Notes: generated from the sequence alone by a model not told the origin. A stretch of 23,302 bases of DNA from Atractiella rhizophila (GCA_021432655.1 MU271350.1:62001-85302), one strand, 5' to 3'; positions 1 to 23,302 are shown, numbered from the stretch's first letter. A program made the numbers and translations.

Positions 1-2306
1 AAGGTCTTCGACGGCATCTTATCTGCCAGACTCACCTTCCATGCTGATAGCAAGAGGGCGCTCCCGACTCACCACTTTGGGGCTAGGCCGGGTCGTTCCA
101 CCAACGACGCTTTAATCACAGTCACGGAATACATTAGGGAGGGCTGGAGAAAAGGACTAGTTACAGCCTCAGTTTCGCTCGATGTTAAAGGAGCGTTTCC
201 AACAGTAGTGCACCAGCGTCTCATCAGCAACTTGAAGAAAAGAGCTGTCCGGAAACAAAAGTAGAGCTGATCGAATCCTGGCTGAAAGGAAGAGAAACAA
301 CCTACAACTTGAACGGCTATACATCCAACCCTTACAAATTGGCAATAGGACTTGCCCAAGGATCCCCACTCTCTCCGATTCTGTACCTTTTTTATAATGC
401 TGATCTTTTGGAAATACAGGCACCAGGGGTGGACTCGCTCAAATGCGGATTCGTAGATGACATCCACATGAACGCCCGTGCAACTAACCCTTCCGAGGCC
501 ATTGCTACACTCGAGGTGATTCTCGATAAAGCAATGACCTGGAGTGAGAAGCATGGTGCGATATTTGAGGAGGCGAAAACAGACTTTGTCCTTTACGGTA
601 AACGTAAGAAGATGAAGTCTCGATTTGGCCAACTCACCATTCGTGTTGGATCTACGACGATATCGCAGTCGTCTGAGATGAAATACTTGGGAGTGCTCCT
701 TGACTCCAGGTTAAGTTTCAACTCTCACCTAAAGGCGATTGAGACGAAGGCGAAGAAATCGTTATCCCTCCTGGCAACACCCTCCAACACTACGAGGGGC
801 ATCCCCCTCCGATTGTATCGGCGCCTCTATGAGGCTACAACATGCGCAATGACGGACAACAACGCCATCATATGGCACCATCTAGGGAAGAAAAGTGGAG
901 GAGCCTCAAGACTCGAGGCAGTGCAACGATACGCTCAACGACTTATGCTGGGAGCTTTCCGCACCACTCCCACATCCGCCCTATCACACGACTCCAATCT
1001 CCCCCCAACAGTGGCGAGGCTGGACAAAGTTGTCTCACGAGCCACAGTCAGATTACTAGCACTTTCTAGAGACAACACAGCAGGCAACCTGACGAGCTCA
1101 TTCCACCAATCCCAAACACCGAAAAAGCACCTTTCCCCCCTGATCACATTTTCAAAGCCAACAACATCAGATTTCCAGACGACCTAGAAATCATCCCAAC
1201 CTTCACAGTGCACCCAGGACACACCCCTCCATTCGACACCTTCATTGCAGATTCAAAGGAAGAAGCGACTAAGCACTTCCATGACCTCAAAAACGAAGAA
1301 GACGAATACTGGATTTTCACGGACGGCTCACGAACTGAGGACGGGGTGGCATTTGGACTGGCAATCACCAATCCGGAAACTATGGCAGGCTACAGGATAG
1401 GAGAATGCGACGAAAACACGGTGTTCGAGGCTGAATTGCTTGGGATAGAGCGTGGCTTGGCATTGAGCCTCGCACTCAATGATCAGCGGGGACTACGATC
1501 CATCGGTCCGTATCTTCACGGATTCACAAGCCGCTATCAAAAACCTAGCAAAAAAACCAAAGAGTAAACCCGGTATAGGAATCGTCCTGAACATCCTCTC
1601 CCTCGCCGCCAAACACCGACGCCTTAATCCTCTATGCGGAATCCACATACACTGGATACCGGGCCACACCAAAATCAAAGGCAACGATCTGGCAGACAAG
1701 GCAGCAAACAGAGCCACAGATGGGAAGAAAGCTATTGGTCGAGTGAAAATTCCCAAGAGCCCATCAGCCATCCGCGCTACCCTCAGCATCTCCAGATTCA
1801 ACAACGGATACACTGTCTCCCGAGACTCAGGCTGTCATCACCGTTCACTTGCCTCAAGGCTGTCACCAGAGCAAACATATGCCATGCTGTCGGAAATGAC
1901 ACGAGCTCAGGCATCCATCTTCATCCAGCTACGTTCGGGTCATGTCGCCAATAACAACTACCTGAATCGGATAGGAATCAAGGATGACCCGGGTTGCGAG
2001 TACTGTGGCATGCGAGACACGGTGACGCATCTCTTCTTTGAATGCGAGGAACACGAGGAGGAAAGGAAAAAACTAAGGGAGAGGCTGAGAAAGAAGGACG
2101 TCCGGTTCAGATCACTCAGTGACGTCCTGAGTGAACCGGAGGCAGTTCAAGCGGTCTGGGAATTCATTAGAAAGAGCGGTAAGTTCAAGCTTTGGATTGG
2201 ACGGGCGCAGCGAGTCCTGGACAGGAGGAAGGCGAAGAGAAAGGAAACGGCGAAAGGAAAGGAGGAAGAAGAAGCAGAAAAACAACGCGAGGACTGGGAA
2301 GACTGA
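1..2306 (+). mobile_element. Non-LTR retrotransposon (LINE, Tad1/I-like), 3' part; begins before the window
   Basis: Continuous RT - RNase H - CCHC knuckle pol architecture typical of fungal Tad1/I-group LINEs. No LTR or integrase. No clear poly(A) or repeat tail after the stop at 2306. Confidence 0.93.
1..2306 (+). pseudogene. LINE ORF2 (reverse transcriptase, RNase H, zinc knuckle), frameshifted at ~249, ~1140 and ~1475
   Basis: Frame 1 from nt 1 reads KVFDGILSARL...HFGARPGRST...SLDVKGAFPTV. ORF 309-1187 has GLAQGSPLSPILY, GFVDDI (catalytic xxDD) and KYLGVLLD. RNase H motifs: IFTDGS, VFEAELLGI, IFTDSQAA, HWIPGH, GNDLADKAA. C-terminal QLRSGH and CEYC-x7-H-x4-C. Confidence 0.92.
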
Positions 2307-2885: not shown

Positions 2886-4880
2886 ATGTCAGCCTTTTCT
2901 GTGTTGCGAAGAGAAGTTCTAATGCTTCCCTTCTTCTGGTGCATGCACTCCAAGTTGTGCATGCGCAAAGTCCAAACAAACTTGTATTTTCGTTGTGGCC
3001 GAAGATTGACGACGACGCAGCCTGCTCCAGACTCTCTCGCCTTAGAAACTCTGCAACCCTCTCAATTTCATGCTCGAATAACGCCCTGCAGCAACCCTCT
3101 TAGAGATATTTGCAACATGATCACCCCAGAAGACGCTTCCTTTATCGACTACATCCAAATTGCCACTCGACGCGACCTCTCTTCAAATCCTTACGTGCAG
3201 GAGCTGGAATCCAAGGTGTTTGATCTAGATACATCTTTGGAGAGAGAAAGAATAGACAAAGAGAAGTGGAAGAAGTTCTACACGGAGAAGAATGAGGAAG
3301 TGGAACGGTTGCAGCTGGAACTCGAGAAGATTAGAAAACCTCCCCCGCCGTCTGCAAACTCGACTGCACAAATTCGCATCAAAGGCACCCCTGTCTTGTC
3401 CACCGATCCTGTCGCTGATTCAGATACAAAGGACTGGGTCACGAAGCCAGTACGACCCTACAGATCCTTTATCGATGAAAAAGAGGCTGAGAGGCTCCAG
3501 GTCTTTTGGGAACGTAAGCACGCTGTAGCTGCAACCCGTACTGGCGCTCAGAACAACCTCCTCGATCCATTGCGAGTTCTGCGGCAGCTTGTCTTCGACG
3601 AATTGGATGATACCGTCACTGGCTCGATACCACTATCAAAGGGAACTGCCGATGTTATCCGAAACGACGCTACTGTCTACGTCAGATCCTACCTGGACAC
3701 GTCGAGGTCAATCAAGAACCAGGAAGGAATCTGCAAGACTACCTACCTTCCCAACATACTGCGCAGGCTTGAAGATGACTACAGCTCGGTACTTCGTCCC
3801 GGAAAGAACGACTGGATGGCTCGCATATTTGTCACAGCAGTTCTTAGAAATGCGAGCGGAAGCAATCATGACGATGACGACAAAACTCCTTGTGGTGTTG
3901 GCGGAGATCAAGATAGCGGGGGAACTCTAGCTCTTAAGGAAGCACCGAAGAGAAAGGGCGGTATTGATGGTGTGAAGAGGTTGAATGAGAAGAGAAAGAG
4001 AGTGGAAAGCTTCGACGGAGAACAAGGTATGCACCTTTTATCGTGGATATGACCGGGTTTGAGATTGGGTGCAGGGAGCGGAGGACATGCTTTGAGCAGC
4101 GGGACAATGGTCCCAGTTATCGGGAACAGAAATGGGAAGAAGTCTACAGCAATGGTGTGTCATTTCTTCTTGACCTCCAAATAGTACTTTGTGTTTTATG
4201 CAGGCAGACCTACCCATTGATCCCTTAAGAGAGAAGAGGATTAATCAGAATCCGGTGGCTACGGAGCAGAAAGATCTGCCTGGCACATCTAACACCATTC
4301 CTGCCGTAATTAGTTTGTGTTCCCCATCCATGTCAGATCCACAACTAACCATAGCTAGATGAGCTTCGAGCCATGGTTGTTGACCATGACAATCTCACAA
4401 ATCTCGATGTACTGGCCACGTTTATCGTCGAAGGAGTATTGCCCCCGTGGCATGCCGATTCCCACTCCGGTGCAGGCGAGACCGTCGCGAATGCAGCCAC
4501 CAAACGCCTTCTCAAATCAATCACACAAGCGGAATACGACATTAATCTCCCAATCGAAGCTGACGAGGACGATTACAGCTCTGAAGATCTGCAGAACAGC
4601 GCTCGAGGGGATATGTTGGGCCACAATAGCCTCGGAGAAGATACCCTTTTTCGCTTAAAGAGATGGGAGAACGTTGGCTCGCGAGATGCAATTGGGGAAT
4701 TGCTGAGAGTCATCGTACGAGGTGCACATGTCGCACGACGGTTAGGCAGGCGGTGGAAGAATGCACATCCTGATTGGGAGGAGACGACGCCAACGTTGTT
4801 GAGTTTTACCTGCATAGGAAGACTTGCGGAGAGTCTGGCCGATGCTTGGCTAGAAGGCGGTGGCAGCAATTCCGTAATCG
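2886..4880 (+). CDS. Spliced hypothetical protein with coiled coil; 3' end abuts or is cut by the pogo fragment
   Basis: Exon from 2886 (or ATG 3117) to 4026, then 4075-4154, 4204-4305 and 4355 onward. GT-AG introns 4027-4074, 4155-4203 and 4306-4354 (CTAAC branch at 4345) all keep the frame and join ORF 2886-4052 to ORF 4373-5029. Heptad E/K-rich segment VQELESKVFDL...LQLELEKI. Family not recognised. Confidence 0.65.
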
Positions 4881-5882
4881 TGAGTGCGGGATGGTGCAGA
4901 AAGCGAGGACATTGTGAGCTGGTGCGTACTCCAAGAACTCGATCATCTGATGTGAGCCGTGGCCATCCATCACTAGCAACTGCCATTCCTCAGGATCCAA
5001 AGGTTGTGTTTCCTCCTCCCAAATTGTAAGCCATGCGACACCTTCCTTCTCATCTGTCCATCCGCTCGGAGTGTTACTGTATGTTGCCCCAGGGACCGGA
5101 TTATCAACCCAAGAAGACATGAAGTTGTGGCCTGCCAAAATAATGTAGGGACTGCTGCTTTGTCCTTCCACACTGACACATTCAATGACTGTAATCCATT
5201 CCCTATTCCCATCTTTTCAGGCCCCACATAAGCTGGTCATGTTGCAGAATAGAATCAGGACCACACACCTTGAACATACTGAATGTCTCCAACCTCCCTC
5301 CTCCTTCTTACCACAACATGTTCTTTCTGGGCAACTCCAATCATAAAACCTTTCTCATCAAAATTATTTTGATCCCATAGTCTTGACAAGTCCTTGAGAG
5401 TTCCTGATACCATTTCTCAATCTCATCCGCTGAAAATGCAACTCTTTCTTTCCCAATCTGATGAACTTTACGATTTCTAAAATCTGGATGGCGAGACATA
5501 AAAGCATGGTACCATACATTTCCAGGAAGAGTCGATTCAAGAGCATGAGGATACTTTTTGACGAAGATTTTCTTTGCAATGGAGATAATGTGGGATTTGG
5601 TAACGGGGAAAAAAAGGTCAAAAGATCGATCACAGATGTTGAGAATGCTGGTCTCTTCCTCCGGCGTAAGTTTCTGTCGAGAACGCATCTCTTCACTTCT
5701 TGATTTTGCACCGTTGAGCCTCCCGGCCAAGCTGGTGCGAGGGACAACCGAAACGCTTCGCAACCGCCGTAATGTTGATACATGATGCTTCGTTTCAGTT
5801 CTCGTGCGTACGTTTCGGCAGCATTTAGAATCATTTCCCGTGACTTAGGTGAGGGCTCGGATGGTTTTTTAGGATGTGTCAT
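4881..5882 (-). mobile_element. Truncated pogo/Fot1-type (Tc1/mariner superfamily) transposase: HTH, CENP-B HTH, partial DDE_1
   Basis: VPRTSLAGRLNG and QKLTPEEE...GNVWYHAFMSRHP (CENP-B-type HTH). NFDEKGF (first Asp, 5357-5359). Intron 5213-5268 restores QDGNREWITVIECVS. SGWTD and LLVMDGHGSH (second Asp, 4965-4967). Homology stops at FCTIPHS (~4881), before the expected QPLD motif. Frameshifts near 5365 and ~5780. Confidence 0.9.
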
Positions 5883-6261
5883 GCTGTTGACGAGGGTGAG
5901 GAGGGTTTTGAAAAAGTTGTTTGGAAGCAGACGCGCGTTGCACCCGTTGACGTAATGGTCAAATTAAGATTCACGGTTGACCATGAAGCGGAATTTCACA
6001 CTGGCAAACACCATTTCCTGCTGAATATGGCTGCAATTGTGCCTCAATTTTTAAGAAAACTGGTCATTGTGTTGGCAGGAGTCAAGGTACTGACATGTTG
6101 TAGATTATCAATTCTATGAGAGTGTAGTCTTGAAAATTATATTTTGGTGTTTCAAATTACAAAGTTGTGACGCTTGTCCCCAACCTCCCGTTATGGGACA
6201 ATGAGCCAATACTTCCGACTTACGCTCACTCTGGGTTGGGAAGGGGCATTGTTGGAAAGAT

Positions 6262-7380
6262 TTGCCACAAGAAACCCGCTCAGCACTCAAGCGTGAATTT
6301 CTCTACACAACGGTGGATCAAATTGAGAGCTTAATGCCTCCGCCAACATTGACCCTTCAACAACTTCACAATCTACCCCTCCCTCAGAGATCTAGTACTC
6401 GGCGAATCTACCTATCAACGCCTCCTAACCTTGTCCCTGCCAGTCATAAGGACGTCTGCAACAATTTCTTTCACAATATCCCTGCCAACGATGGCAGTTT
6501 GTGGAACCAGTTGCAGCGGGAGGCCCTGCAGTCTCGTCTGGACGGAGCGACGTCTGTTAGTGCACCAGGCTCTCTCATCCACTTTCCGGTGTGGATTCTC
6601 GAATCTGGCGCCGATGGCAATACTCCAGTGGTCACCTTCAGGTTTGCGAGAAGTTGAGAAAGATCCTACAATGGAGCGATGGGGAATTAGATCGGCAAGA
6701 AAAGATGCACTCGACTCAATACTCCGATCCACCGCCTGGAAACAAGACTGGCTTGCTTTCAAGCTGACCGACCATTCATTCGATACTCTTCGAGTCTGCA
6801 GGACTCTTGGGAAAGAGTGGTATTCGGATGCCAACCTTGATTTCCTGATAGAAGCTTTCTCCAGGAATTTTCTTCATCCAAATCCTGCCATGGTACATTG
6901 TTTTATTGCTTCATGTTCTTTGTGGACCCATATCTTTGATTCCTTTTGTTTTGGCTGGGGATGTTATCAGTTTCATTCTGATTATTATGGCAATCTATCA
7001 AAAAGTGGTGCATGCACATTTTTATCTTTCCAGTCAATCAGCAGTTGAATAATTTGCATTGGATTCATATTACCATCTCAACCGTTCATCGTACTATTTT
7101 CATGTCAAATTCCATGGATATCACCCCATCTGATGCATATGTCAAAGAATCCGTTCAAGCTATACAGTTATGGTTATCAGAGTTTCTACCTTTTACATTT
7201 ATGGTTAATTTTAATGCTCTCATTATTCCTTCATTTGTGATCAATTCAATATTTCATCTTTTTGCTCCAATCGGCATTCCTATTATTCAAGATCAAGATC
7301 AGAACAGGTGGCGGTTACAACTTACTCGTATGCTGGTGGATTTCAATGGATCTGTAAGTGTTATGTCCAATTGTAAGTAA
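6262..7380 (+). pseudogene. Degenerate Ulp1/SENP-like (C48) cysteine protease domain, probably transposon cargo
   Basis: Across three frames: TLGKEWYSDANLD (W-x2-D motif), IFIFPVN...LHWIHITI (His, 7057-7059), IFMSNSM (Asp position reads Asn) and ...INSIFH...QNRWRLQL. No Q-x-[DN]-x2-[DS]CG catalytic Cys segment is visible. Confidence 0.6.
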
Positions 7381-7961
7381 TGCTGATTACGGTTTGGAAG
7401 CAGCGCGCAATGAAGCACGAAAAAATTATGCTTATCGGAAGAAGTGGATTCTCAAGTATTGTGCCCACGGCATCACAGGATGTTCCTGTATATGATGTTC
7501 CACCTGGCTTGCAATGCAGACAGCATTGCCAGACAATCACTCTTGTACCCGTCTTTCTGTCAACGAAATCTGTTCCTCAGGATTCCCTCAATCTCTTGCT
7601 TGCAGCTTGCCTTCAAGGCGAAGTTAATGATTCAGAAATATTTGACGATGTAGAAGACGACAGAACCATGCATCCAGACTTGGACGGCGATGTGTACCTA
7701 CAGCTTTCAACCAACTCAACCCCTTTGCCAAGTTCAACAGCACCCTTGAAGAATGCTTTCGATCTCCTTCAACAAGCAAATTTCCAGGATGTTCGGTTAT
7801 CCCCCCAAAAAAGAACAAGCTTGCAACCAGAGCGAAAAAAGAAATCAAACGGAATAGAAAATAAGTTGGAGAGTTCTATGCCCAATAAAAGAGTTGGGGC
7901 CCGCAAACATTTCTGGGTTGTTGGAAAGAATGATCGCTGGACATTCGATCAGCATGACAAG
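7380..7961 (+). CDS. Linker ORF of unknown function whose 3' end reads in frame into the integrase-like transposase
   Basis: 196-aa ORF with acidic, S/P-rich and basic (ERKKKS) patches. Preceded by a GTAAGT donor at 7354 and ends at ...FDQHDK|gtcagt. Confidence 0.4.
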
Positions 7962-8375
7962 GTCAGTTAAATATCCATAGTCCTTAGGGTTAATTAAGGC
8001 TGACTAGTACCTTTATGTATGGAGCTGAAACGATTCAGTATCCGTTTTCATGTTGGAATTGAGCCATATTCTGGTAAGATAATGTGGCTGAGAGTTGGAG
8101 GTTCCAACCATCCTCGATTTATTGCCAGCTATTACTTCGACTGTGTGCGCACTACTGATCCGAACCGCAAGAGTGTGCCTCTTCTTTATTTTGCAACTCC
8201 AAAATTAAAAGATGTTTCAGTTATTTCTACAGGAACACAATCTGATCGAGGTACAGACAATCATGGTATTTGCAATTCCCAGACCTTGATGCGACGAATA
8301 ATGGAAAACAATGGGTCTGAAGGACCCCTGATCTTATATCACAAGTTTCTTTTTGGCCATGGAAATAGAGAGTAG
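7890..8375 (+). mobile_element. Truncated integrase-core (rve-fold) DDE transposase, IS3EU-like
   Basis: RKHFWVVGKNDRWTFDQHDK|LKRFSIRFHVGIEPYSGKIMWLRV...SNHPRFIASYY...TQSDRGTDNHGI matches the G-x-N-x2-W-x2-D-x-HDKLK...SD-x-G-x-[ED]N pattern. Asp at 7947-7949 and 8244-8246. Intron from 7962 (acceptor ~8024, non-ideal). Stops at GHGNRE*, before the usual catalytic-Glu helix. Confidence 0.72.
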
Positions 8376-8723: not shown

Positions 8724-9559
8724 CTATATCTTGTTCATATACCATGGGAACGAATCCTCAATTGCCTTTCCATCCCATCCAGGAGCTTCAATTACATCAA
8801 TCTTGGTCTGGAACCAATGAACTTTGCATAGAAGATGTTCCACATTGGCAGGAGAAGGCTCAAACCATGTTCTGACTTTAGGAGAGAGGCCATTTTCCGA
8901 ACGCAAGTATTGAACGATAAAAGTGAATAGATCGCCTAAATCCACATTAAGTCCTTCAGGCAGAAGTTGTCGCAGCATATCTCGTGAGCCTGGTGTAGTA
9001 TTGTTAGGAGAAGACATTAGAGTAGCCAGATCGTTAATTTCTGCTTGCTGATAGAACCCAAGATCGGCTAAATCATGACACAGATGCAGCGGACTTAGTC
9101 CTGATCCAAAAGGCGGGATATCCAGTGAGCGTATCCAGTGTTTCATGATCTTCCAACTAGGCAAATCGGTAGAGGAATTCTGAGGTCGTTTGTCCCAGTG
9201 GAGGCTCGCTGTCCAAGTCTTCTGCACCTGTTCAGGAAATCCCCTGTGTCCTCCTCCCGACATGTTTGACTATAAATTGAAGGATTTGAATAATTCTCCT
9301 GATAGCAACCATAGGCATCAGTTTTGACCCAGTCTTGAACCGCCCTCAGTACATCATCAACTGATTCAAAGGGTTCAGGATGGGAATCGAGAAAGTGACG
9401 GGTAAAATGACCCTGTCCAGTTCCTCGGAGGAATAGAAGGTTGAAAAAGAATAAGGGGGAAGACCTCTTCAAAACACTCAAGCATGTATGGAATATGAGA
9501 GCCTGGGCATTCCCACTTCTCTTCAGTTGATACCAATCGGGATTAGATGCAATCGGCAT
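8724..9559 (-). other. Helical HhH-glycosylase-like domain resembling aG/P-T pyrophosphorylase / amino-acid:DNA transferase
   Basis: IPPFGSGLSPLHLCHDLADLG (HhH-like hairpin followed by DL), PGSRDML (position of the G-A-x2-G-L motif) and NVEHLLCKV (E-x2-LC motif, 8823-8840). Confidence 0.58.
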
Positions 9560-12500
9560 GGATCAGATAATTGTTCAAAGTTCCCAAGTTGATGCGATAA
9601 TGGGGAGTGGATGCAGATGGTGGCAAAGGCAAAAGATGAGTGTCTGGAACAGTTTTCCTTGTTTGATTCCTATTGTTATGTAGATTGCTCGCTTGGTAGC
9701 TGTTTTCTGGTGTATTTTTTTGTTTAGAAGGATCAGTTGTAGCACCTTGACAGATCTGATGGGTCAGCGTGGCGAGTCTGGAGATGGTGTCTAAGGTTTT
9801 ATCATATAGCTCAAGATGAGCTAACACGTTATAGTCGTCGGATAAGGGTTCTGCCTTCCTTCCAAGAACCTGAGATTTGGCCTCGCTTGTTGTGAACAAT
9901 AAAGGACATGGGTGAAAACAAACTTCTTGAACAGCGGCCGTCCAAAAGATGTCCTCTTTCTTATGGCCCAGTTTCCAGAAAGCTGTGATCAAACGCCATC
10001 TTGGAAGCTCTCTGCTTAACCAGTCCTCAAAATCACTAGCCTTTTTTACAGGTTGACCAGTATCGGTACGATCATGATTTCGTAGGATGGGATAGACAAA
10101 TCCTTGTAATAAGGTGTGGATGAAAAGAGTGATAAAGGTTTGGCGGAAACGACTGTCTTCCATTGCTTTTGGACCTTGAGGTAGGTTTCCAATTGGTTGG
10201 AGAGAAACAATCCCTACAGCCTTTGAATGGCGAACTGAAGCAGGAAAGATTGAGAAAAGATCCAAAGTCGACGGGGGTAGATCTCTTGGCTGCTGAGTCT
10301 GACGGCACTTGTCAAGGTGACCAAGCATTTGACGCCCATAGTCTAAATACTGAGAAAGTGCGGGATCTGACACCTCTGCTGTATTGTTCTCACTTGCAAG
10401 GACAGAAAAGACCCAACTGGCCATGGCAGGAGCTTGAATCGATGTCCAGAGATGTATTCTTCGTCTGAAGGAGAGTTGGACATATTTTGCAAAGCGAAAG
10501 AGGATGTGAGCCGTAGATTCAACAGTCTGTGCTACTTCAATCTTTGTAGCCAAATCGAAGAGATGGACAGGGGACTTGAAGGTACCGATTGACTGGGACT
10601 GCTCATCAGAGAGTTCCGTTGAGAGCAAGAGATTTGAGATGGCAGGAATATTGTCCAATCTGATCAGTGATCGGTCCATTGACAGAAGGCCTTCCAAATC
10701 TTTCAGCTTTCCGCTCTTGAGTGATTTTCCAGCCACATAGTATCCTTTGACAACTTCAAGCTCCTCTTGAAGGCAATCAAGACTGAGATCCTTAGTAAAG
10801 AAATCCATATTCACGGGATTCTTGATGCGGATAGGGACATTGGTTCATGGTCGAGAGAGAGATGCAGCTTTTCCGTTTGCCTTTGTTGATGTTTTTACTC
10901 TTTTTCGTCCCTGATATAGCTATGTTGATATAAGAAAAATTTCCATACCTTTTTAAGCTAGCGAAAGATGTTTGCTTACATCTTGATCTAAATCAGCCGA
11001 GTCTTCAGCTGCTTCTCCCAAGGTGTTTGCCTTCCACTATGACGGGATTAGTTGATACTCTGAAGAAATTACAAAATATGGTACCTTGTTACGCTGACCT
11101 GTAAATTGATTATGAACATGCTGGAGAATATATTTAGGCTGAGAGATACAAATAAAAGTGGCAGAGACCTACTGAAGAACCTTTTACAGACATCTGGCCC
11201 TGAAAGAGCACCTCACGACTATGAGAATCAGCCATTAGGATTCGCTGGAAATCTGGGGGTAGTTGATGTTGAATTCGGGAGATATAGGTACGAGCAGCTT
11301 GTTGTTCAACGTCCGTTTGCCTAATATATGGTCAACAATATGTAAATCCGGGTACTAAAGCTTACAATTCCTCAATACCAACCCATAAACCTGTTTTAGC
11401 CCTACGTTTTAGCTGAAACTGCATACCATAAATAGGTTATACCTTCAGATATAAGAATCCGTCTTACCAATGACTGCCTCTCATAAAACCTCCAATCACT
11501 GAACTCCAAGCCATTCGCCTCATCCACCTCCAATTCTTCATGACCAATCCCTTCGTCACAGTGTAACAGTGAGATAACCTTTGGAGAAACCTTTCCAATT
11601 TGGCTAGGCCGAATGTTGAGGTGAAATTTATCTTCCACCGCAAACAGTTTCTGAGCCAACTTCAGCGCTTCTTCACGTCCCACAATATCTTGTGGGTCTA
11701 ACTTAAGTCTTCCAATACTTTGTCGCTTGCCATTCTCTCTAGGAAGAAAAGTAATACCATCTCTAATTTTGTTGAAATCAAACTGGATTTGATAGATTCG
11801 GATTGAAGTAATGTGTGGACTCGTATAACTGAAGTAGACGTTCATGAAGGATGGAGGTAACGTGGTATGAGGGATCGCTCATGACAAGAAGACCATGTTG
11901 TGTCCAGTTCTTGTCTTTTCTTTCGTTTGGAGGGGCCACCCGTGTGTGAACAAGGTTTGGAATAAAACTCGATGTTGGAAAACGCTGGCGGATAGTTGTT
12001 GTTCCTTCGCTAGCCTCATCCTCTTTGTCTGAGTCTATGTTGGGCATTCTGAACTTTGTCTTGTACTTTGAAGGTAAGGACTTTGTAGTGAGCTCCGTGT
12101 TGATATCTGCGGGCTGGAGAGAGAGTGGTATCTGACGGTGGATTGCCAATTCAGTTGCGTAGTTGATGTAACCAATACGAACGGAATCGGCAGGGAGTTG
12201 CTCAAAGGTTCTTTGATCCATGTCGCTTGTCGAGTCCACCTCCATCTCACCATTTGCCACGCTCTCTTGCAAGTCCCTCAAGCTACATAACCTGCTCCCT
12301 CCATGCGGGTTTCTTCCATTCAGGACCATAATGACGAAATCATCTCCAATTTCACAATATTCGCCTGAATGAACGAGACCGAATCTTCCTCCATGAATGC
12401 CTAACCAATCCAATAATTCATCAGCTCAAAGCCTTGCTTGAGGAGAAGGACATAAATTTGAAGACAAAAGGACCTACCACAACTATGATTTAAGAAGAAC

Positions 12501-13517
12501 AATACTACCGTTCTTCCCAAGATTGCGTCCTTCATATCCACATGTAGTTGGCCATACTTTCCTAACCAGGTGCTCAAATCCTTATCTTCATGGAGAGTTG
12601 ATTTTGACTGAAGACCGTGTTGGAAAGAAGAGGTTGCTTTTGACTGTAGGGATATCTCGGCAACATTGAGTTGAAGCGTGGTGAAAGTATAGTTCTTGCT
12701 ACTGCCATATGTAAAAGGGTGGACAAGTTTCGCATGCGCTTTGAGGCATTCAATATATGAGGGTCTCTCCGCCATTTCTAACACCTATCCATTGTCTCTC
12801 GTAAATGATTGGCTCATAGCGGTTTGATGATAAACAAATACATTACCTGTATTGCAATTTCGGCATTCAACCTGTGAATCTCCTTCATGCGTTCCTCAAA
12901 CCCTTCCATCACCGCTCCTTCCTTGCCAGCTACACTAGCAGGAGGCTGCACACACGGCGCATTCAATCCATATGAGCGATTTACTTGTCCGCCTCCCATC
13001 GTATGCGCCACACTAACTTCAGCTTGATGACCTAGACCTCCCTTCCAACTAGGTATTGCACCGCCCAGCCCATCTTGCAAAGCAGAACCTACGACAGGAA
13101 TGCCATCTGGTCCAAACTTTTGCCAAAAGTAAAGAGTTTTAACTTCTCCACCATCTTAATGACAGCAGCTCCTCTCTCTCCCATAGATTCCATTGAGCAG
13201 CGGTTGTGAGCATAAGAGATCAAGGATACTTCAGAGCAGTTGTCCTTGTTTTCTGCAAAAGTAGGAATCCCGAAGTCAATAGCTCGCATGTTGGGGATGA
13301 CTGTGCAGTGTGCATTGTAGAACTCAGCCGGATGGCCAGCAGCAGCCGAAAGCTGAGCTTTGAGGAACATTTTCCCCTCTTCACTCAGATCATGGGAGAT
13401 AATCCGTACTTGATGATACGCCAGCTTGCCGGCTTTGGCGAAGATTTTGAAGGCCGGATGTTTCTGGGCTTGAACCATGGATCCTGTTTGGAGTTGAGGG
13501 TACCAGGGTTCTGACAT
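8724..13517 (-). CDS. Large multi-exon gene: TET/JBP-like 2OG-Fe(II) dioxygenase plus C-terminal HhH-fold aG/P-T pyrophosphorylase (amino-acid:DNA transferase)-like domain; disrupted as sequenced
   Basis: Eight co-directional ORFs joined by GT-AG introns (12785-12846, 12401-12477, 11391-11442, 11321-11365 and further ones in 10913-11172). Frameshifts at ~13155, ~11790, ~9550 and ~9265, and an in-frame TGA at 10845-10847. Start ATG 13517 is a best guess (frame open to 13715). Last exon uncertain. Confidence 0.66.
12160..12784 (-). other. 2OG-Fe(II) dioxygenase (TET/JBP-like double-stranded beta-helix) domain
   Basis: After removing intron 12401-12477: NYTFTTLQLNV...GKYGQLHVDMKD (HxD, 12536-12544)...TVVLF...GGRFGLV...IMVLNGRNPHGG (distal His, 12303-12305)...VRIGYINY (Arg, 12177-12179). 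Order and spacing fit the HxD...H...R signature. Confidence 0.72.
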
Positions 13518-13776
13518 AGTTCTGACAGAACTGGCAGCAAAATGAAGGGCGGGCTTTATGAGCTTTGGTTGGTTCGTTGTTCCTTTGCTAGAGGTGGCAA
13601 CAAGTCGTAGGGGTCTTTGCTCCGTCATGTGACTTACAACCCTCCGAAGGGTCCTACGAATAACATTCCAACTTTGAGTCTTCTGACTGCAATGATTGGC
13701 TGGAAGGTTAGGCACCCGGCTTTGTGCGGATGTAAACGGTAGACGGCGTTAGGAGGATCAAACCATTGCATACCAA

Positions 13777-14107: not shown

Positions 14108-14141
14108 CCACTGCTCCCTCGCTGAGTGCCATGCTCCCATC

Positions 14142-14157
14142 TAGGCTTGGTACACGG
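14142..14157 (+). repeat. hAT terminal inverted repeat TAGGCTTGGTACACGG
   Basis: Exact reverse complement of 18425-18440. Preceded by TSD CTCCCATC. Confidence 0.97.
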
Positions 14158-14400
14158 GGAACCCGTGGCCCTGTGGGTTTTTCCGGGAGGTTTTGGCGCT
14201 CTGATGCCATCCCGTACCCGCCCTCGAACCCTCAAGGGTTTCCCCGTCGTTGCAGGGGCATTCCCGCAGGATTGCTGGGAGGGGACGGGAGCCAAAGGGT
14301 TCACGGGACACTGACGGGATGGGAGGGGCGATATCAATATTATTATCCATGTACTCTACTAACCTCTCTGCACAGTTCAATAATCATTAATCATTCACCT

Positions 14401-14420
14401 ATCAATCAATCAATCAATCA
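14401..14420. repeat. (ATCA)5 microsatellite overlapping the transposase stop
   Basis: atcaatcaatcaatcaatca read directly. Confidence 0.85.
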
Positions 14421-17400
14421 TCATGCTTCCCTCCCCACGCTCCGCCTCCGCCGCCACCTTCTTCCTTGCCGCCTCTGCTCCCTTCCTCTTCTTCCTGTCA
14501 TTCTGTTTCACAGCTCCAAATAACTCCTTCATAGGAGGCATGAATCCATCCTGCTCCCAGAGCTTGAGCATCATGGCCGAACAAAAGACGGGGTCCGACA
14601 ATTGATGACGTAAGTAAGAAACCATCAGACGACCCCCTGAAAAGGCACGCTCAACGTCCACCGAAGTTGCTAGCACCTTCAATCAATGTAAAAAACAGAG
14701 ATGAATGAAGCTGCATACCTGGGACTGCCATAATATCCATGGCCATCTTGTGGAACTTCACATGGAAATGCTCCTTAGCGCGCTTCGCCTCTCGCCATTA
14801 CTGATAGTGGTACTTGAGGCCATCCAATTCTGTTGTCCCAGAATCATCCTGCAGGGTCTTGATAGGCAACGGGACACCTTTGATAAACTCTACAAGGTAG
14901 TCGGCAGTGGAGGTATCGTCTGCGTCGTCAATCATTGCGTCGAGTTCGTACAATGTCCGAGCCTTCTTTCGTAGGCGTGGCACAGAGGTGGATGCCTGTG
15001 AGCAACAAATTAGGACTTAATTGTGGGAAGGAAAGTATAGAGGTTCCGGGTTGGACGCACAGAATTACCCGTTTTTGCTTTGTAATGCTGCTGCTGAAAC
15101 TCCTGTAAGCTATCCATGGCTTCCATGATCCAAGCCTCTTCCCAATCCAATTTTTTCAAGTATGCAGCCCGGCGGTTGGGATGAAGCACTTGAGTATCTG
15201 TCAGTTTCAATGCTGAAATGTTTGAGTAGTGAAAACCTGCAAAGAGCCCATAGATAGATCTTCAAATCTTCAACTACTTTCAGAAAATATTTGTCCAAAA
15301 CTGCCTGTGCAGTTGCAGCGCCGGCTTGGACAGCAGCGTGCTTGTCAGGGAAGTGGATTTCACCATCAAGCTCATAAGTTTCATAGAGGCGAGAGAGATG
15401 GACACCGATATTATTGAAGAGGGGGATGACACTAGCTAAATTGGAGAAGTTGGCCCTCGACATCCAGTCTGTTGCCTGTTGGAACAGCTAAAGCAAAGTC
15501 TTAGCTTTTGGATAAAAAAAATAAACAGGAAAAACATACTTGCAGGGTCGGATTTGCTTGCTCCATAATTTCCCACTCCGTTCTTGTCAATCAGCATCGC
15601 TCAAGTTTTAAGCTCGGTTTACCACAAAGATTTCACAATGCGTCCTTCAAGTCTATTGCTCGATCAATCATCGCACCTTCGCCATTCCAACGTGTGGGAC
15701 AGGCTTTGACAAGGTGCACAGGAGGAGATAGAAACTTAAGAGGTCCTTCAGGATCCTCTTTTTGGAGAGCGGCAACCTCGTCGTCAAGTTTGCTTCTAAG
15801 CCCATCGTTCAAGGCTGTCCTTTTGGCCAGATTCGCAAGCTATTTTGTTGATTAAAGGACGGTGAAGGGTGAAAGACAATGCATGCAGTGTACCTTCGTG
15901 AGCATGAAACGCGCCTCTAATTCTTCCTTTGGAGAACAAGTTGCTTTCGGAGCAGCCTCTTCCCGAATTAGATCAATTGCAGCGGCTTGTGCTTGCACTT
16001 CTTCACTTTGGTCTATAGCAAAAGCGTTAGATTGTTAGACCAATTGGCTAAACCATACCTTCTAGTTCTGCTTCTTCAGTGAACCCCGACTCTCTCAGTT
16101 CTGCTTCCAATTGTGATAATGCCACTTCATCCGCAGTAACGGAAGTCCCAATACCTGCTATGACCCGTTTCTTCCTAACTGGCTCCTTGAAACGACTCAA
16201 AAATCCCTGGACATTGCATCATCTAATCAGTCTCCCATCACATTTTACTGCCAGAACTGTACCTTTGCAACCAAGTTGAGTATGTGGTCAAAGCATCGCA
16301 CTCGCAAATCCGCTCTCCAGAGAAGCATCTTCGGATACTTGACCCTGTTTTCCATTGCCATTGTAAATGTATCGTTGTTAGATGCACTGTCGCATCTTGG
16401 AGCCATGACCTGCGCAGAATGTCAACTCTCGAAGAAAGACTCCATGAGCAGACTTGAACACACACCCTCTCGCACACTTCATATGAATCTAATAAGCCAT
16501 AGACCAAAGCAGCAATGTTATCTCCCGTATGTGAATCAAGAACCCTGTTCCTACATTAAATGGGTTCTCACAACGAAGGACTTTGTACCGAATGAAACCA
16601 AGAGCAACTTTCTTTGCATCTCCCCACTCGCGGAAGTGAAGATAGACAAGGACATAACTGAAGTCCTGAGGAGCTGTCCAGCCGTCCACCATAATGAAAA
16701 AGTTCCCAGGAGCAGCCTTTGACAGTTATTAGTATTGTATACAGGATTCAAACTCGGCATGTACCGAAATTCTGGCCTTCACCTTAGCGCGCACGTACTC
16801 CTGCAAGAATTTCGCATCCTCTACTACTCTGTGACAATCAATGTTTGGAACACTCTCTGATCCACCGTTCCCAAGCTTGAGGATCTCTCGGAAATAATGA
16901 TCGTGTGTGAAATTGAACGGACGAGCTGAAGTGGTGCACCAGAGAGCAGCAAGGACACGTCGGTACGTGTCGCGGTCCGTCTGGTCCATCGCATTGACCA
17001 ATAGCTGATTCTCGCTGACCACAAGTTTTGTTTGCTGACTCTTTGAAGATCCTTCGTCGCCCTGTAGACAGTCTTTTTAGATCCTTATCTAAAGCTCACA
17101 AAAGACCAACCTCGACGCATTTGTCGGCACTAACTTGCAAGCCTTTGGTGCTTCCGTCATCGCGAGCACGTTCATACGTGTGGTTCGGGTTGGTCTTGCA
17201 GACAAATGTGTAGAAAATGCGAAGTTCTCCTGACTTTCTACCAGATCGTGTGTCCTTCAGATAGGTACCGCAACGAAGAATTGGGCGTTTGTGATAATGA
17301 AGATATACGCTCGGTTTGTTGCTATTCTTTTGAACTTTGGACCTTCCCCAGCGTTGAATATCGAAGTCTATTGTAATATCAGAAAAAGATTTGGATGGAG

Positions 17401-17647
17401 TCTCGGAAGAAGACCAACCAATGATCTCATCATCCTTCCAACCGTCAAAGCTGCTGTCCATCTTGAAGTCCACCCCTCGTGGTAGTTCCCGAGCGTGCTT
17501 TCGAGGGGACCTACGAATGGAATCCCCAACATCATCATCTGATGAATCAAGCTCGATGGTAGCAATATTTTGAGGGTCAGGGGTTCGGCAGCGGGTCTGA
17601 TGACTGGTGTCGGAATTCATCGAATCTTTCCGAGTGCGCTTGGACAT
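14410..17647 (-). CDS. hAT transposase, multi-intron, at least one frameshift (~16320)
   Basis: ATG 17647 (MSKRTRK). BED-like FVC...STKGL...KC, SARPFN, MVDGWTAP (Asp 16684-16686), SHTGDNIA, CDSASNNDT (Asp 16389-16391), RVRCFDHILNL (CxxH), CPTRWN, VLHP and C-terminal ATSVDVERAFS (Glu 14650-14652). Confidence 0.93.
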
Positions 17648-18424
17648 GATGGAATACCAGACAAGAAATGAGTGCAAGTGATTGCCAAGAAATCAGTCCT
17701 GTTTTATAACTTTTCGCCTCTGCGTACGGCCGATAGAGGCAATCCTCTACCAATTTCAAAGGTCAACAGAGCACACGGATGCGGTATGTCATCCCCAATG
17801 GACTCGTCCGAAGCAGGCACTGACATTTTTTGTGTTCCCGCAGCCAGACAGAAGCTGCCGATAGCCATCAACGGCACATTCATTTGCTGGGAATTTGAAG
17901 GTTTCATTTATGTCTTCGTGCTGCTCTCATCGCAGGGACTCAAACCCATCTGCACAGTTATTGAAGGAGGAGCACATTCGGTACACTCAACTTCAGAGAA
18001 CTTCTTTGGAATCACTTAATTTTGCCAATATTCTCATCCGGGTTCTTTCAGAAGCAGATTGTACTCTAAGCTTTTCATAGCTCTTTCTCCCATGCCCGCG
18101 CAGAATCGAGTGGAAGGCATCCAATTCTCTCTCCCGCTCACCCATGACATAAAAAAGGAAGGAATGACGGACTGTTCGAGGACTGGTTAAAATCTCGGGC
18201 TCTACTTTCAAGTTGGGACAGGAGTGAAGCATAGGATCAAGCGTGAAAACTTGTGCGCAGTTGCTCGAGAAACCGTGCAAACCCACGGGTAGCCACGAGT
18301 GTCGAATTCGTAAATGTGTTTCCCGTCCCCTTCCCTTCCCCAGCAAGGATTTTCCCGCCGCTCCTGTGGGATACCCTTAAGGGGAAGGGGATGGGAGGGT
18401 CACAGGTTGTGACGGAATCCAAAA

Positions 18425-18440
18425 CCGTGTACCAAGCCTA
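18425..18440 (-). repeat. hAT terminal inverted repeat CCGTGTACCAAGCCTA
   Basis: Exact reverse complement of 14142-14157. Followed by TSD CTCCCATC. Confidence 0.97.
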
Positions 18441-19730
18441 CTCCCATCCCACACTCTCTCCTCTCGCATGATTCCCGTTTGCCGCCTCTAGCTCTCTCGC
18501 ACTTAGACGTAGTCGTCCCCCAATCAACCCTGATAACGTAGCCCCTAGTTCCTGCGGTTTCCACTGTTGCTGCCGTCAATGGTCCCAGTCTGAACAAAGT
18601 AAAACGAGGTTCGTGCCGAAGAAATTTGTTATCCCACTGCCACTCAGGGTTAGGACGTTCAAGTTGGGATCAGATTCATGGCAATTATCGGAATGTTTCA
18701 TGACATAAGGACGTGACCGCCTTGGTGACAAAATATCTCACCTTCCGCAGCGGCATCTGAGCTGTCGTGCTTGATATTCTACCTTCTGTCTATCTGCATT
18801 GACGACCAAAGTGATACACAGCGGCTTCACATGGGCATCATTATGATCACGATCTGATCCGACCCAGCCGATCATTGCTTCAACTTGAAGCCGACCTGCA
18901 CAGTCCTGCGGACACCCATATCAATCCCAGGTTGATCTCCTCTCTCTCACTTATCTTTAGAGCTGTTCTGACTGTTCCTAGTTGTCACCGCTGTTCGACA
19001 TGTTTCAACGTTCTGGCGCCAGTTCTTATCCAAATCTCTAGAAATTACCATCGCAAACATGGAGTGCGTCAACTTACAAGGTATCATGTCGGCGTTTAAG
19101 CAATTACTTTCTATAGTGCATAAGCAAAGATTATGCTGTCTGTGAACAAGCCTACCGCTCAAGTCTGAACTTTGCATGACCTTGGAATTCCGCTCTGGTA
19201 GAGATGTTGCTTTTACCCAGGCATCTGGGTAGAGGCAGCTTGTCTTGATTTCAGACAACCCTCCTGCGCAAAGCAATTTCATATATTTCGGATATGGCTC
19301 CTGTGTGCGTCAAATCAACTGTAGCGATGTTTGTTTCTGGACTCGTATCGACGTAGGAAGGAGCCGAATATGCCACACCTCCATGGATACATCAAATTCT
19401 GCCGAAGACATTTAATCTGAAAAGTTCAATAGTCAGCCTGACAATTTCGTCGATCGACTTTCTTAAGCTACTGTCAGCTGTTACCTCACTGTCCCTTCTT
19501 CCTTCTGCACCTCCCCTCTTTGCTCAATTCTCGGCAGTCTTCCTCTTACAAGTTCTGTGCTTATACCAACAAGGGATCAGTGTGGACACATTGCAACTTT
19601 CGGTTCCTACATGAAGCAGCATCAAGCCTCCATTCAAGATAAAGATGACGAAGCAGAAGAGATCTTATCAATCTTTCATTCCCTTGCCGTCTTTCCCATA
19701 CCAGCCACCCTCAGATCTTAAATCCGCACC

Positions 19731-20652: not shown

Positions 20653-21381
20653 GTCCAACGTAGGTAACCGAGCTCCAAGCTAGAAGACACGGCGCAAGAA
20701 GATTTAAAGAGGAGGATTGCTTAATTTTATCGGTCGTCAACTGGCAACATGCCAAACATTAAAATTGCTCCCATGTTTTGATCCTGGGGACTATTTGCTG
20801 TGAATCCTATCCTCTAACATTCATTAGTCATACCTCCCTCACCAGGTTACTGCATATGTTTGTGCATTTCTGAAGTTGCAAGGAAATCTTACGTTAAAGT
20901 CGTGAAAAAAAGTGTTATCTCCTGGATTTGAACCAGTGAAGTTGAAAACAAAGCCAATAACACCAAGTGCAGCTGCCCTGCAAATTTCATGATGTGCCAC
21001 AAGCGACGCACGCAATTTCTAGAGCATGTGTTGGGTTTTCTCGGATTGTATGCCAGTTGGTCATGTTTGCCTACCATGAAGGGAAGAAAGTGAGCACATG
21101 TGAGTAGGAATATACTGGCTTGCATTATGTCCTGATGCAATCTTAGAACCATCATGTCCTATCCTCAGAAAAAAATTGGTGTAAACCAATGTATCCATGC
21201 TCAGCAACAAAAGTGGCAGGAGAGCCCATCACTCAGGTAGCTCCAGGCTGCACAGAAAGATTGTCGCATCACTTCCAGGTCATACAAGTGACAACACCTC
21301 AGCATGTGACCGGTCAAATTCATATGCAGCAGTAGCAGGAGGATGAACCTCCTAGAGGATGCCAACGCTGACAGTAGCCAG

Positions 21382-23302
21382 ACCAACAAAGATGGTTATC
21401 CCACCTACCGGCGACGTAACAATGGACGCACATTTCAGAAGACACCGAACGGATTTATTTACGACAATCGCTGGGTCGTACCATTCAGTGCTTATGTCCT
21501 TCTGAGGTTTGTAGCTCACATCAATGTGGAGCTTTGCATCTCCATTAAATCAGTCAAATACCTCTTCAAATATGTCTCCAAAGGACATGATCGGGCACAA
21601 GCTGTACTTCATCATGCAAGAGGTGAAGGTGTGAGGGTTCTGGATGAGATTCAAGAGTACTTGGATGCCAGATTTATCGGATCTTCTGAAGGTAATGCTT
21701 AACATGATATTATGGGTAATCTGATATATCTTTCTAGCCTGTTACCGGATCTTCCACTTCCCACTACACCAGCACTTCCCTGTGGTTATCCGCCTGGCAA
21801 TACACCTTCCTGATAGGCATTTTGTGACCTTTAATCCCCAGGATGAGTCACTGGGAGACATTCTCAACAGGAATAATGTCACCAAAACGACGTTGACTGA
21901 GTTCTTCACCTACTGTAGGGAAAACCCCAACATTACTGAAGACCTTACCTATCCAAGAGCGCCGCAATTCCTTACTTGGAAGTCAGCCACACGCTCTTGG
22001 AAAATTCGGGAGCGCCAAGAAGCCATTGGACGCATATATCACGTTGCACCTTCACAAGGGGAACTATTCTATCTCCGAATGCTCCTCCATAAAGTTGTCA
22101 GCCCAAAATCTTTTGAAGATATCCGGACAGTAGATGGAACCATCCACGAGACTTTTAAGGCTGCATGTATGGCTCTTGGGTTGTTAGAAAGTGATCAAGA
22201 ATGGGATTTCTGCCTTGATGAAGCCAGTGCAGTTAAGAATGGCTTTGCAATGCGGTCTCTCTTCATCTATATTCTATTATTTGGTGTTGCCAGTGAACCT
22301 AGAAGACTATGGGATGGCCATAATGGGCAGCTCAGCGATGATTGTAAACACCTTCTACAAACAAAGTATGGCACAGCCGATCCGACACAGGAGCAGATTA
22401 TCAGTCTTTGTCTCCTTGAAATTGAAGATCTTCTCCAGGCGTACGGTAAAACTCTAACGGATTTTGGACTACCACAACCAGCAGAGCGGTTTGAGAGATG
22501 GGGAGGGGAGACAAGGATTATTGGTGAAGAGCTTGCATATGATCAATCATTACTTCAGACACGCCTTGAGACAGAGTTGCCATTATTAAACGAAGATCAA
22601 CGTCATGCTTATGACACGATTGTAGCAGCATGGCAAGGTGGAAATGGTGGATTGTTCTTTATCGATGGACCAGGAGGGACCGGAAAGACATTTATGGAAA
22701 ATTTACTCCTTGCCAAGGTTCGGTCATCTAGGAAGATTGCACTAGCAGTGGCCTCTTCAGGTATTGCCGCTATCCTGCTGGAAGGAGGACGAACGGCCCA
22801 TACACGCTTCCGGATCCCACTGGACATTGATGCCGACTCAGTCTGTAGTATTACTGCTCAGAGTGATCATGGACGACTTTGCCGTGAGGCAGAATTGATA
22901 ATTTGGGATGAAGTAGGAATGAGCCATCGATGGTGCTTTGAAGCAGTTGACCGGATGCTTAGAGACATGCGCAAAATAGATGCACCTTTTGGTGGAGTTA
23001 TTTTGGTCCTAGGTGGTGAGTGAATCAAGTTAAAGAGTTCAGCTCTAATAATTTTCAGGTGATATGCGACAATGCCTATCAGTGATTCCCAAAGCTTCAC
23101 GGGCACAGATTGTCAGTGCATGCGTTATCAACAGTCCTTTCTGGCCAGCAGTTCAAGTCCTCCCTCTGACCGTGAATATGCGCCTTCTTCGTCATCAAGC
23201 TGAAATGACACGGCGGGACTTTACGACTGCCTCTCGCTTTGCTGAATGGTTGCTGTCAGTTGGGAATGGTGCAACCGACAACCCAGAAGACTGTGGCCAT
23301 GG
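21382..23302 (+). mobile_element. Helitron RepHel gene, 5'-truncated, continuing past the window end
   Basis: DGYPTYRRR, DNRWVVP, HINVE and KYLFKYVSKGHD (Rep YxxKY). Intron 21692-21737, then RLAIHLP and GELFYLRMLL. Pif1 helicase motifs FIDGPGGTGKT, VASSGIAA, GRTAHTRF and IWDE. Intron 23016-23058 restores GGDMRQ, followed by LTVNMR and FAEWLLSVGNG. Confidence 0.95.

Follow-up and report, generated by a model that had tools for sequence, protein, structure and literature searches.

Can a single fungal protein oxidise a base in DNA and then modify it further? The question is raised by a gene on the minus strand of a 23,302-nucleotide stretch of DNA from Atractiella rhizophila, a basidiomycete of the Pucciniomycotina. 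The whole of this stretch is referred to here as the window. The original prediction, made from the sequence alone, described positions 8724 to 13517 as one polypeptide in which a TET/JBP-like dioxygenase is fused to a domain of the aGPT-Pplase/ADDT type. The present analysis suggests, with a probability of roughly 0.6, that the window holds one copy, now decayed, of a repeated Atractiella gene. The intact form of this gene would encode the dioxygenase, a middle region of about 600 amino acids (aa) and an aGPT-Pplase-type domain, and its product would oxidise and then modify a pyrimidine.

Is there one gene? Eight open reading frame (ORF) pieces lie on the minus strand (13089-13748, 12814-13155, 12401-12784, 11778-12425, 11402-11878, 9543-10844, 9143-9562 and 8724-9269). 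Short canonical GT..AG introns and a few frame changes join them into a multi-exon gene which runs from 13516 to 8724, has its ATG at 13516-13514 and comprises about 1,420 codons; the claim that the split ORFs form one gene of some 1400 aa thus held. The predicted HxD...H...R signature was located near the N-terminus (LHVD, PHGGS, VRIGYINY), and the strings FGSGL and EHLLCK are both present at the C-terminal end where they had been placed. Five Atractiella gene models, P0001 to P0005, have parts of the gene in common. P0001 is a deposited model of 1,872 aa which is 100% identical and shares most exons with the assembled gene; the 433-aa ORF at 9543-10844 matches a portion of it with 100% identity, under the name 'hypothetical protein BT69DRAFT_1297867'. 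The parts of the gene are as follows.

8724..13516, minus strand: the whole pseudogene (predicted TET/JBP-like dioxygenase, middle region and C-terminal aGPT-Pplase-superfamily domain), from the ORF pieces, the sequence and the mapping of P0001-P0004
12847..13516, minus strand: N-terminal region, from the ATG at 13516-13514, with its frame broken near 13121
11829..12784, minus strand: predicted dioxygenase core, exons 12784-12476 and 12401-11829, from the sequence, phmmer and hhalign
12846-12785 and 12475-12402, minus strand: introns flanking and within the dioxygenase core
12545-12537, minus strand: HxD (LHVD), followed by GGRFGL
12305-12303, minus strand: distal His (PHGGS)
12179-12177, minus strand: Arg (VRIGYINY)
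9555..11746, minus strand: middle region, about 600 aa
10845..10847, minus strand: premature stop TGA (RP-stop-TNVP against RPRTNVP; Arg in paralogues P0003 and P0005)
8724..9553, minus strand: predicted C-terminal helical domain, with TDAY, FGSGL, TPGS and VEHLLCK in that order
9110-9096, minus strand: FGSGL
8843-8823, minus strand: VEHLLCK, with Glu at 8840-8838 and Cys at 8828-8826

Is the gene intact? The original prediction had allowed for a few small frameshifts; judged against the paralogues, these are genuine lesions. Near 13121 the loss of 1 nt gives FTFGKSLDQ... in the window where paralogue P0002 reads FTFGQKFGPDGIPVV. The lost reading is 'GIPVV', of which 'IPV' is kept in P0006, a relative from Lentinula edodes. 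The TGA at 10847-10845 is a CGA-to-TGA change at a CpG, and the deposited model P0001 bypasses it through an alternative splice. Immediately upstream of this stop, in the middle region, is the basic stretch LYQGRKRVK. Further frame changes relative to P0004 occur near 9555 and 9260, and there is no space for an intron at either. With one frameshift, one stop and two further frame changes, the window copy is a pseudogene, and therefore it cannot make this protein. CpG has an observed/expected ratio of 0.57 for the gene and 0.70 for the whole window; TpG and CpA in the gene stand at 1.20 and 1.13. Together with the CGA-to-TGA stop, the CpG depletion fits the pattern that deamination of methylated cytosines in repeats would leave.

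Do the parts belong to one protein? A phmmer search with a 977-aa stretch of P0001 against 1.84 billion representatives recovered five proteins: four Atractiella paralogues and P0006. The homologue searches recovered only Atractiella paralogues and this one Lentinula protein; two metagenome scans found no relative, and tblastn of P0006 and of P0007 (a 179-aa database protein which corresponds to the C-terminal ORF alone) against phages gave nothing below E 5. In P0001 and P0002 the dioxygenase is joined to the middle region. In P0003 it is the final dioxygenase exon, which follows the catalytic motifs, that continues into the middle region. P0004 (55% identical; on a 3.7-kb contig) is a single model that covers both the middle region and the C-terminal domain, and is uninterrupted over 743 aa from the one into the other. 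Put together, the overlapping models make it likely that the intact gene encodes one three-part protein.

What is the C-terminal domain? The evidence that it is of the aGPT-Pplase/ADDT type, as had been predicted, comes from a protein-language-model atlas, from profile comparison and from a shared active-site motif. In the atlas, ORF 8724-9269 has cluster scores of 0.95, 0.94, 0.94 and 0.93, with 200-212 of 256 features in common. These clusters carry PF18723 (HMUDK_hel) or PF18724 (ADDT), except for one which carries no family; a further cluster at 0.89 carries PF18724 and PF18746 (aGPT-Pplase3), and shared features across the clusters range over 176-212 of 256. Basidiomycota predominate in one cluster near this ORF. 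The atlas structure model (predicted template modelling score, pTM, 0.69) reaches a template modelling (TM) score of 0.62 with a cluster whose members carry HMUDK_hel in 28% of cases.

The profile comparison used two phage families. One is of the clade-1 type, represented by PaMx11 gp50, the counterpart of which in a related phage is annotated aGPT-Pplase1; its profile combined six annotated phage proteins with 55 representatives, chosen at 70% identity from 79 of 80 IMG/VR loci. The other is of the clade-2 type (PaMx11 gp46; 73 of 75 loci, 47 representatives), to which the proven transferases belong. A fungal alignment of the P0004 C-terminus and two window ORFs was compared with the clade-1-type profile in hhalign and scored 34.6 (P 2.8e-4), over 257 collinear columns which span TDAY/TGAY, G.G, PG[SA] and VEH.LC. 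The column-shuffle null is 14.4 +/- 3.2, and none of 120 shuffles attained 34.6; unrelated control pairs scored 19.0 and 19.2. The window ORF by itself scored 27.7 (P 0.0015). Compared with one another, the two phage families give 34.8. By this yardstick, the distance between the fungal domain and the clade-1-type family is about that which separates two accepted relatives.

The motif VEHLLCK is identical in P0004 despite an overall identity of 55%, and both its Glu and its Cys are kept. It was matched by hhalign to VETILCK of gp46 (Glu243, Cys247) and VEHTLCE of gp50, even when small profiles were used. In M6 gp51 and ViI gp247, the reaction of which passes through an exocyclic C5 methylene, the conserved Cys is described as essential together with the Glu beside it (PMC8989533). 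In PUGT, the name given to PaMx11 gp46, Glu243 holds a metal at O4 and Cys247 is proposed to attack C6 (PMC11472151). The C-terminal domain can thus be assigned with moderate confidence to the aGPT-Pplase/ADDT/HMUDK_hel helical superfamily.

Is the N-terminal part a TET/JBP-like dioxygenase? The window has HxD, His and Arg in the order and at the spacing of a double-stranded beta-helix core; about 38 inserted aa lie between the last two of these. It matches P0006 (581 aa) with a phmmer E of 9e-4 and 33% identity over the core; LHVD, GGRFGL, PHGGS and VRIGYINY of the window align with VHID, GGRFHL, LHGGT and YRSVVVLY. P0006 in turn matches a profile of phage TET/JBP proteins like Cooper gp2 (78 of 80 loci, 21 representatives) with a score of 38.4 (P 5.4e-5). 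HxD, GG, HG.TP and YR are aligned here, and VHID/LHGGT/YR of P0006 fall on HRD, VHGVTP and YRIS. Against phrog_24024, P0006 has an E of 0.025 and Cooper gp2 one of 3e-9. Cooper gp2 is the phage TET/JBP reference in the Figure 7 legend of Kojima 2025 (PMC12730594); it too falls under the cut-off of the Pfam model Tet_JBP (PF12851), with 26.6 against 34.9 bits (E 4e-6). The support therefore passes transitively from the window through P0006 to the phage profile. This two-step chain, the motif pattern and the setting in the genome give moderate confidence that the window dioxygenase is TET/JBP-like.

Three observations on these proteins stand apart. The string LHED had been considered as the metal-site HxD and was rejected; the stretch which contains it is missing from P0006. 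The C-terminal end of P0006 is chromodomain-like (Swi6, E 0.019) and points to a divergent fungal TET-like protein that is directed to chromatin. The best PHROG family of Cooper gp2, phrog_6059 (9.5e-166), is labelled 'queuine tRNA-ribosyltransferase', whereas Pfam and the literature say TET/JBP; the label looks wrong.

For the middle region, some 600 aa long, there was no family match in Pfam, PHROG, NCBIfam or the PDB sequences. One string within it, GYYVAGKS (10745-10722, minus strand), fits GxxxxGK[ST] and was considered as the Walker A motif of a hidden kinase. P0004 has Arg in place of its first Gly, and the region has no likeness to PaMx11 gp49; the string is probably not a P-loop.

It should be noted that a number of results weigh against the reading of an oxidising and modifying fusion protein; they are gathered here and in the next three paragraphs. 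As applied to the window copy, the reading meets a copy which is broken. Among P0001-P0005 the three parts are never found together in one model, and no intact copy was seen. The paralogues are all gene predictions, and P0001 and P0002 are mis-joined to transposon genes. The single-polypeptide fusion of the original prediction is consequently upheld in part: overlapping models and short introns speak for it, but it is pieced together from predictions and no one of them spans it all. The locus could instead hold two neighbouring genes of one repeat unit, merged by gene prediction or by reading through, and the existence of P0007 as a separate protein, the modest length of the atlas neighbours (159-232 aa) and the chimeric nature of P0001 and P0002 at this place would all suit such an arrangement, as would the want of a spanning model. 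However, P0007 is separate solely through the frame change near 9260, the middle region and the C-terminal domain of P0004 are continuous over 743 aa, and P0001 and P0002 (and P0003 from the last dioxygenase exon) continue into the middle region. The gaps in the window are short GT..AG introns, too small for a promoter or terminator. Two separate genes are very unlikely on this evidence.

For the C-terminal domain, Pfam, PHROG and NCBIfam gave no match with P0007, P0004 or the ORF pieces, although the same Pfam models do match the phage proteins (gp46 to ADDT at 1.6e-27, gp50 to HMUDK_hel at 5.6e-41). Searches of PDB sequences found no match for either domain. The fungal domain scores only 21.8 (P 0.023) against the proven clade-2 transferases. 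Single sequences and seven-member profiles were not significant in hhalign (E 0.16, 0.056 and 0.23), and the N-terminal family motif F.N..RE.D is not retained. An AlphaFold model of the C-terminal ORF with P0004 has a mean predicted local distance difference test (pLDDT) score of 42.5, too low for fold comparison. The phage biochemistry also counts here. Clade 1 (e.g. M6 gp55) is described as being without demonstrated activity (PMC8989533); the phage transferases require a phosphorylated base. The gene product has no likeness to PaMx11 gp49 and no kinase family match.

These points bear on a further explanation, in which the fusion is real and the C-terminal domain is a non-enzymatic module that would flip out or bind a modified base, so guiding the dioxygenase or holding its product. 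An analogy exists in the helical domain attached to 5-hydroxymethyldeoxyuridine (5-hmdU) DNA kinases. The best score of the fungal domain is to the clade-1 or HMUDK_hel type (34.6) over the proven transferases (21.8), and PaMx11 gp50 itself matches Pfam HMUDK_hel. M6 lysate without gp55 still made the glycinylated intermediate (PMC8989533). The loss of several family-invariant positions also counts in its favour, as does the failure to find a kinase for the leaving group in the gene product. Set against this is the Glu-x3-Cys-Lys motif, which equals the clade-2 active site in type (VEHLLCK against VETILCK); that it is identical in a paralogue as diverged as P0004 suggests selection on those residues. 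A pure binding module is rather unlikely.

For the dioxygenase, Pfam Tet_JBP gave no match at E up to 1 or 10 with the ORF pieces, P0001, P0002, P0003 or P0006, and PHROG and NCBIfam gave none with the window dioxygenase. Alone against the Cooper-like profile, the window dioxygenase scores 17.4 (P 0.13) with the register slipped. With P0006 it scores 25.8 (P 0.008), and one of 150 shuffles attained this. AlphaFold modelling of the 977-aa stretch together with its paralogues gave a mean pLDDT of 33.2, again too low for fold comparison. The TET/JBP-like label of the original prediction thus stands by way of P0006, but it is not carried by the window sequence taken alone or by Pfam. Does the enzyme then act on DNA? 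A 2-oxoglutarate oxygenase of proteins or small molecules which shares only the fold with TET/JBP would explain the silence of Tet_JBP and the P of 0.13, and TET/JBP was the one double-stranded beta-helix family against which a profile was compared. Yet the other oxygenase families in Pfam are silent too, and P0006 aligns with the phage TET/JBP proteins at HxD, His and YR. The chromodomain-like end of P0006 and the fusion partner, the family of which consists of DNA-base enzymes, also point to DNA, and transposon-borne TET/JBP genes are known in the Pucciniomycotina (PMC12730594). An oxygenase with a substrate other than DNA is improbable.

How would the intact oxidising and modifying protein work? 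The N-terminal 2-oxoglutarate/Fe(II) dioxygenase would hydroxylate the methyl group of 5-methylcytosine (5mC) or thymine (T) in DNA. The C-terminal domain would flip out the oxidised base, and its Cys, with the Glu kept alongside, would make a Michael attack on C6. Such an attack would open chemistry at the C5 substituent, which might be replaced by a nucleophile or lost; the base might also merely be bound. As no kinase was found in the gene product, the phage pathway is not simply transferable. The benefit would fall to repeats targeted by cytosine methylation. Shielding of repeats from methylation silencing has been proposed for transposon-borne TET/JBP genes (Kojima 2025, PMC12730594).

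The strongest form of this proposal is that the intact copy is a kinase-free eukaryotic enzyme which oxidises 5mC (or T) and then performs thiol-at-C6 chemistry on the oxidised base. This is a long shot. If it were true and the oxidised C5 substituent were cut off, the protein would be a repair-independent, one-protein DNA demethylase; if a new group were attached, fungal DNA would contain a hypermodified base. Either outcome would let repeats evade methylation-based silencing. The proposal makes it testable whether fungal DNA holds bases beyond 5mC and 5-hydroxymethylcytosine, and whether oxidised 5mC is removed at C5/C6 without base excision. It should be noted, as a caution on significance, that in the material sampled the family was seen only in Atractiella.

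Is the gene carried by a transposon? The window is dense with transposon remnants, and an element neighbours the gene on its upstream side. This element ends in perfect 16-bp inverted repeats, TAGGCTTGGTACACGG, at 14142-14157 and 18425-18440, and is flanked by an 8-bp target-site duplication, CTCCCATC, at 14134-14141 and 18441-18448. A transposase remnant within it maps to 17647-14216. Pfam found no hAT transposase domain in the element (14142-18440). The atlas leads for P0001 as a whole are of transposase type only (0.76-0.82, ZBED1/Hermes-type clusters). The label hAT-like is taken from the length of the duplication, the inverted repeats and these weak atlas leads. The gene had been considered as a passenger of the element and this was rejected, as the repeats and the duplication enclose 14142-18440 only. 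The hAT-like element is accordingly an insertion in its own right, some 620 bp upstream of the gene; P0001 crosses its boundary, fuses the transposase remnant with the dioxygenase gene and is chimeric. In P0002 (966 aa) a different upstream stretch, with a CCHC-like zinc-knuckle string recognised by eye, is fused to the dioxygenase copy; separate copies therefore have different upstream neighbours. The other contents of the window are as follows.

14142..18440, minus strand: hAT-like DNA transposon, 4,299 bp, from the inverted repeats and the target-site duplication
189-2306, plus strand: non-LTR-type retroelement remnant (RVT_1 8.7e-12, RNase H 3.1e-5, zf-RVT 7e-4)
4806-5963, minus strand: pogo/Tc5-type transposase remnant (DDE_1 1.3e-10 at 4806-5216; weak HTH_Tnp_Tc5 0.017 at 5341-5844)
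6205-8375, plus strand: overlapping ORFs which converge on the 3' end of the gene, with no family match
21310-23023, plus strand: PIF1-type helicase ORF (helicase 21725-23023; PF05970 3.9e-51)

The run of ORFs at 6205-8375 may be another decayed gene. The PIF1-type helicase ORF, which extends towards the end of the window, may be part of a Helitron.

How does the gene compare with systems already known? Among the papers that literature searches listed, none deals in its title or the opening of its abstract with an aGPT-Pplase-type domain in fungi, and narrower searches yielded no description of one. The abstract of Iyer et al. 2013 reportedly mentions such systems in basidiomycetes; an association of TET/JBP with aGPT-Pplase in fungi may therefore be on record already. 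In the main text of Kojima 2025 (PMC12730594), 'Atractiella' has 0 occurrences and the words 'helical' and 'fused' are absent.

The closest phage relatives of the C-terminal domain are of the clade-1 or HMUDK_hel type (PaMx11 gp50, M6 gp55). They give the best profile match and have T[GD]AY, G.G, PG[SA] and VEH.LC in the same order. The fungal domain differs from them in being eukaryotic and the C-terminal part of a roughly 1,400-aa protein, in its want of F.N..RE.D, in the Lys which follows the Cys in place of a clade-invariant Glu, and in the silence of the Pfam model. The clade-2 or ADDT enzymes (PaMx11 gp46, which is PUGT, M6 gp51 and ViI gp247) have the active-site Glu-x3-Cys-Lys in common with it. 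Overall likeness to them is weak, and Trp146 and Lys150 of PUGT have no evident counterparts. The phage enzymes use 5-phosphomethyl-dU made by a separate kinase, whereas none was found in the fungal gene product.

For the dioxygenase, the phage family of Cooper gp2 is comparable through P0006, which aligns with it at HxD, GG, HG.TP and YR; the window sequence is more distant (P 0.13) and carries the insert of about 38 aa between His and Arg. Fungal transposons also carry TET/JBP genes (the PU, AG and PE types of Kojima 2025; CcTET), and those on DNA transposons include examples from the Pucciniomycotina (PMC12730594). Like these, the window gene has an HxD...H dioxygenase, occurs in multiple copies and lies in a transposon-rich region of a member of the Pucciniomycotina. 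The PE type is described as very divergent from the Pfam model, as is the window gene (PMC12730594, section 3.2.3). Unlike the PU, AG and PE genes, the window gene lies outside the adjacent hAT-like element, and it is likened to these types by description and not by sequence.

The nearest parallel to the combination of the two domains is found in metavirome contigs (Lee et al. 2021), in which TET_JBP is paired with an aGPT-Pplase-family protein; the role ascribed to this TET_JBP is to produce in situ the hydroxymethyl group from which the pathway starts (PMC8989533). The contigs have separate phage genes and a 5-hmdU DNA kinase, as against one predicted fungal polypeptide in which no kinase was found. 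TET/JBP genes on fungal transposons and TET/JBP genes paired with aGPT-Pplase genes in phage contigs are thus both known already. The new arrangement, if the proposal is true, would be one fungal chain which has both domains, keeps the Glu and Cys of the transferases and is kinase-free.

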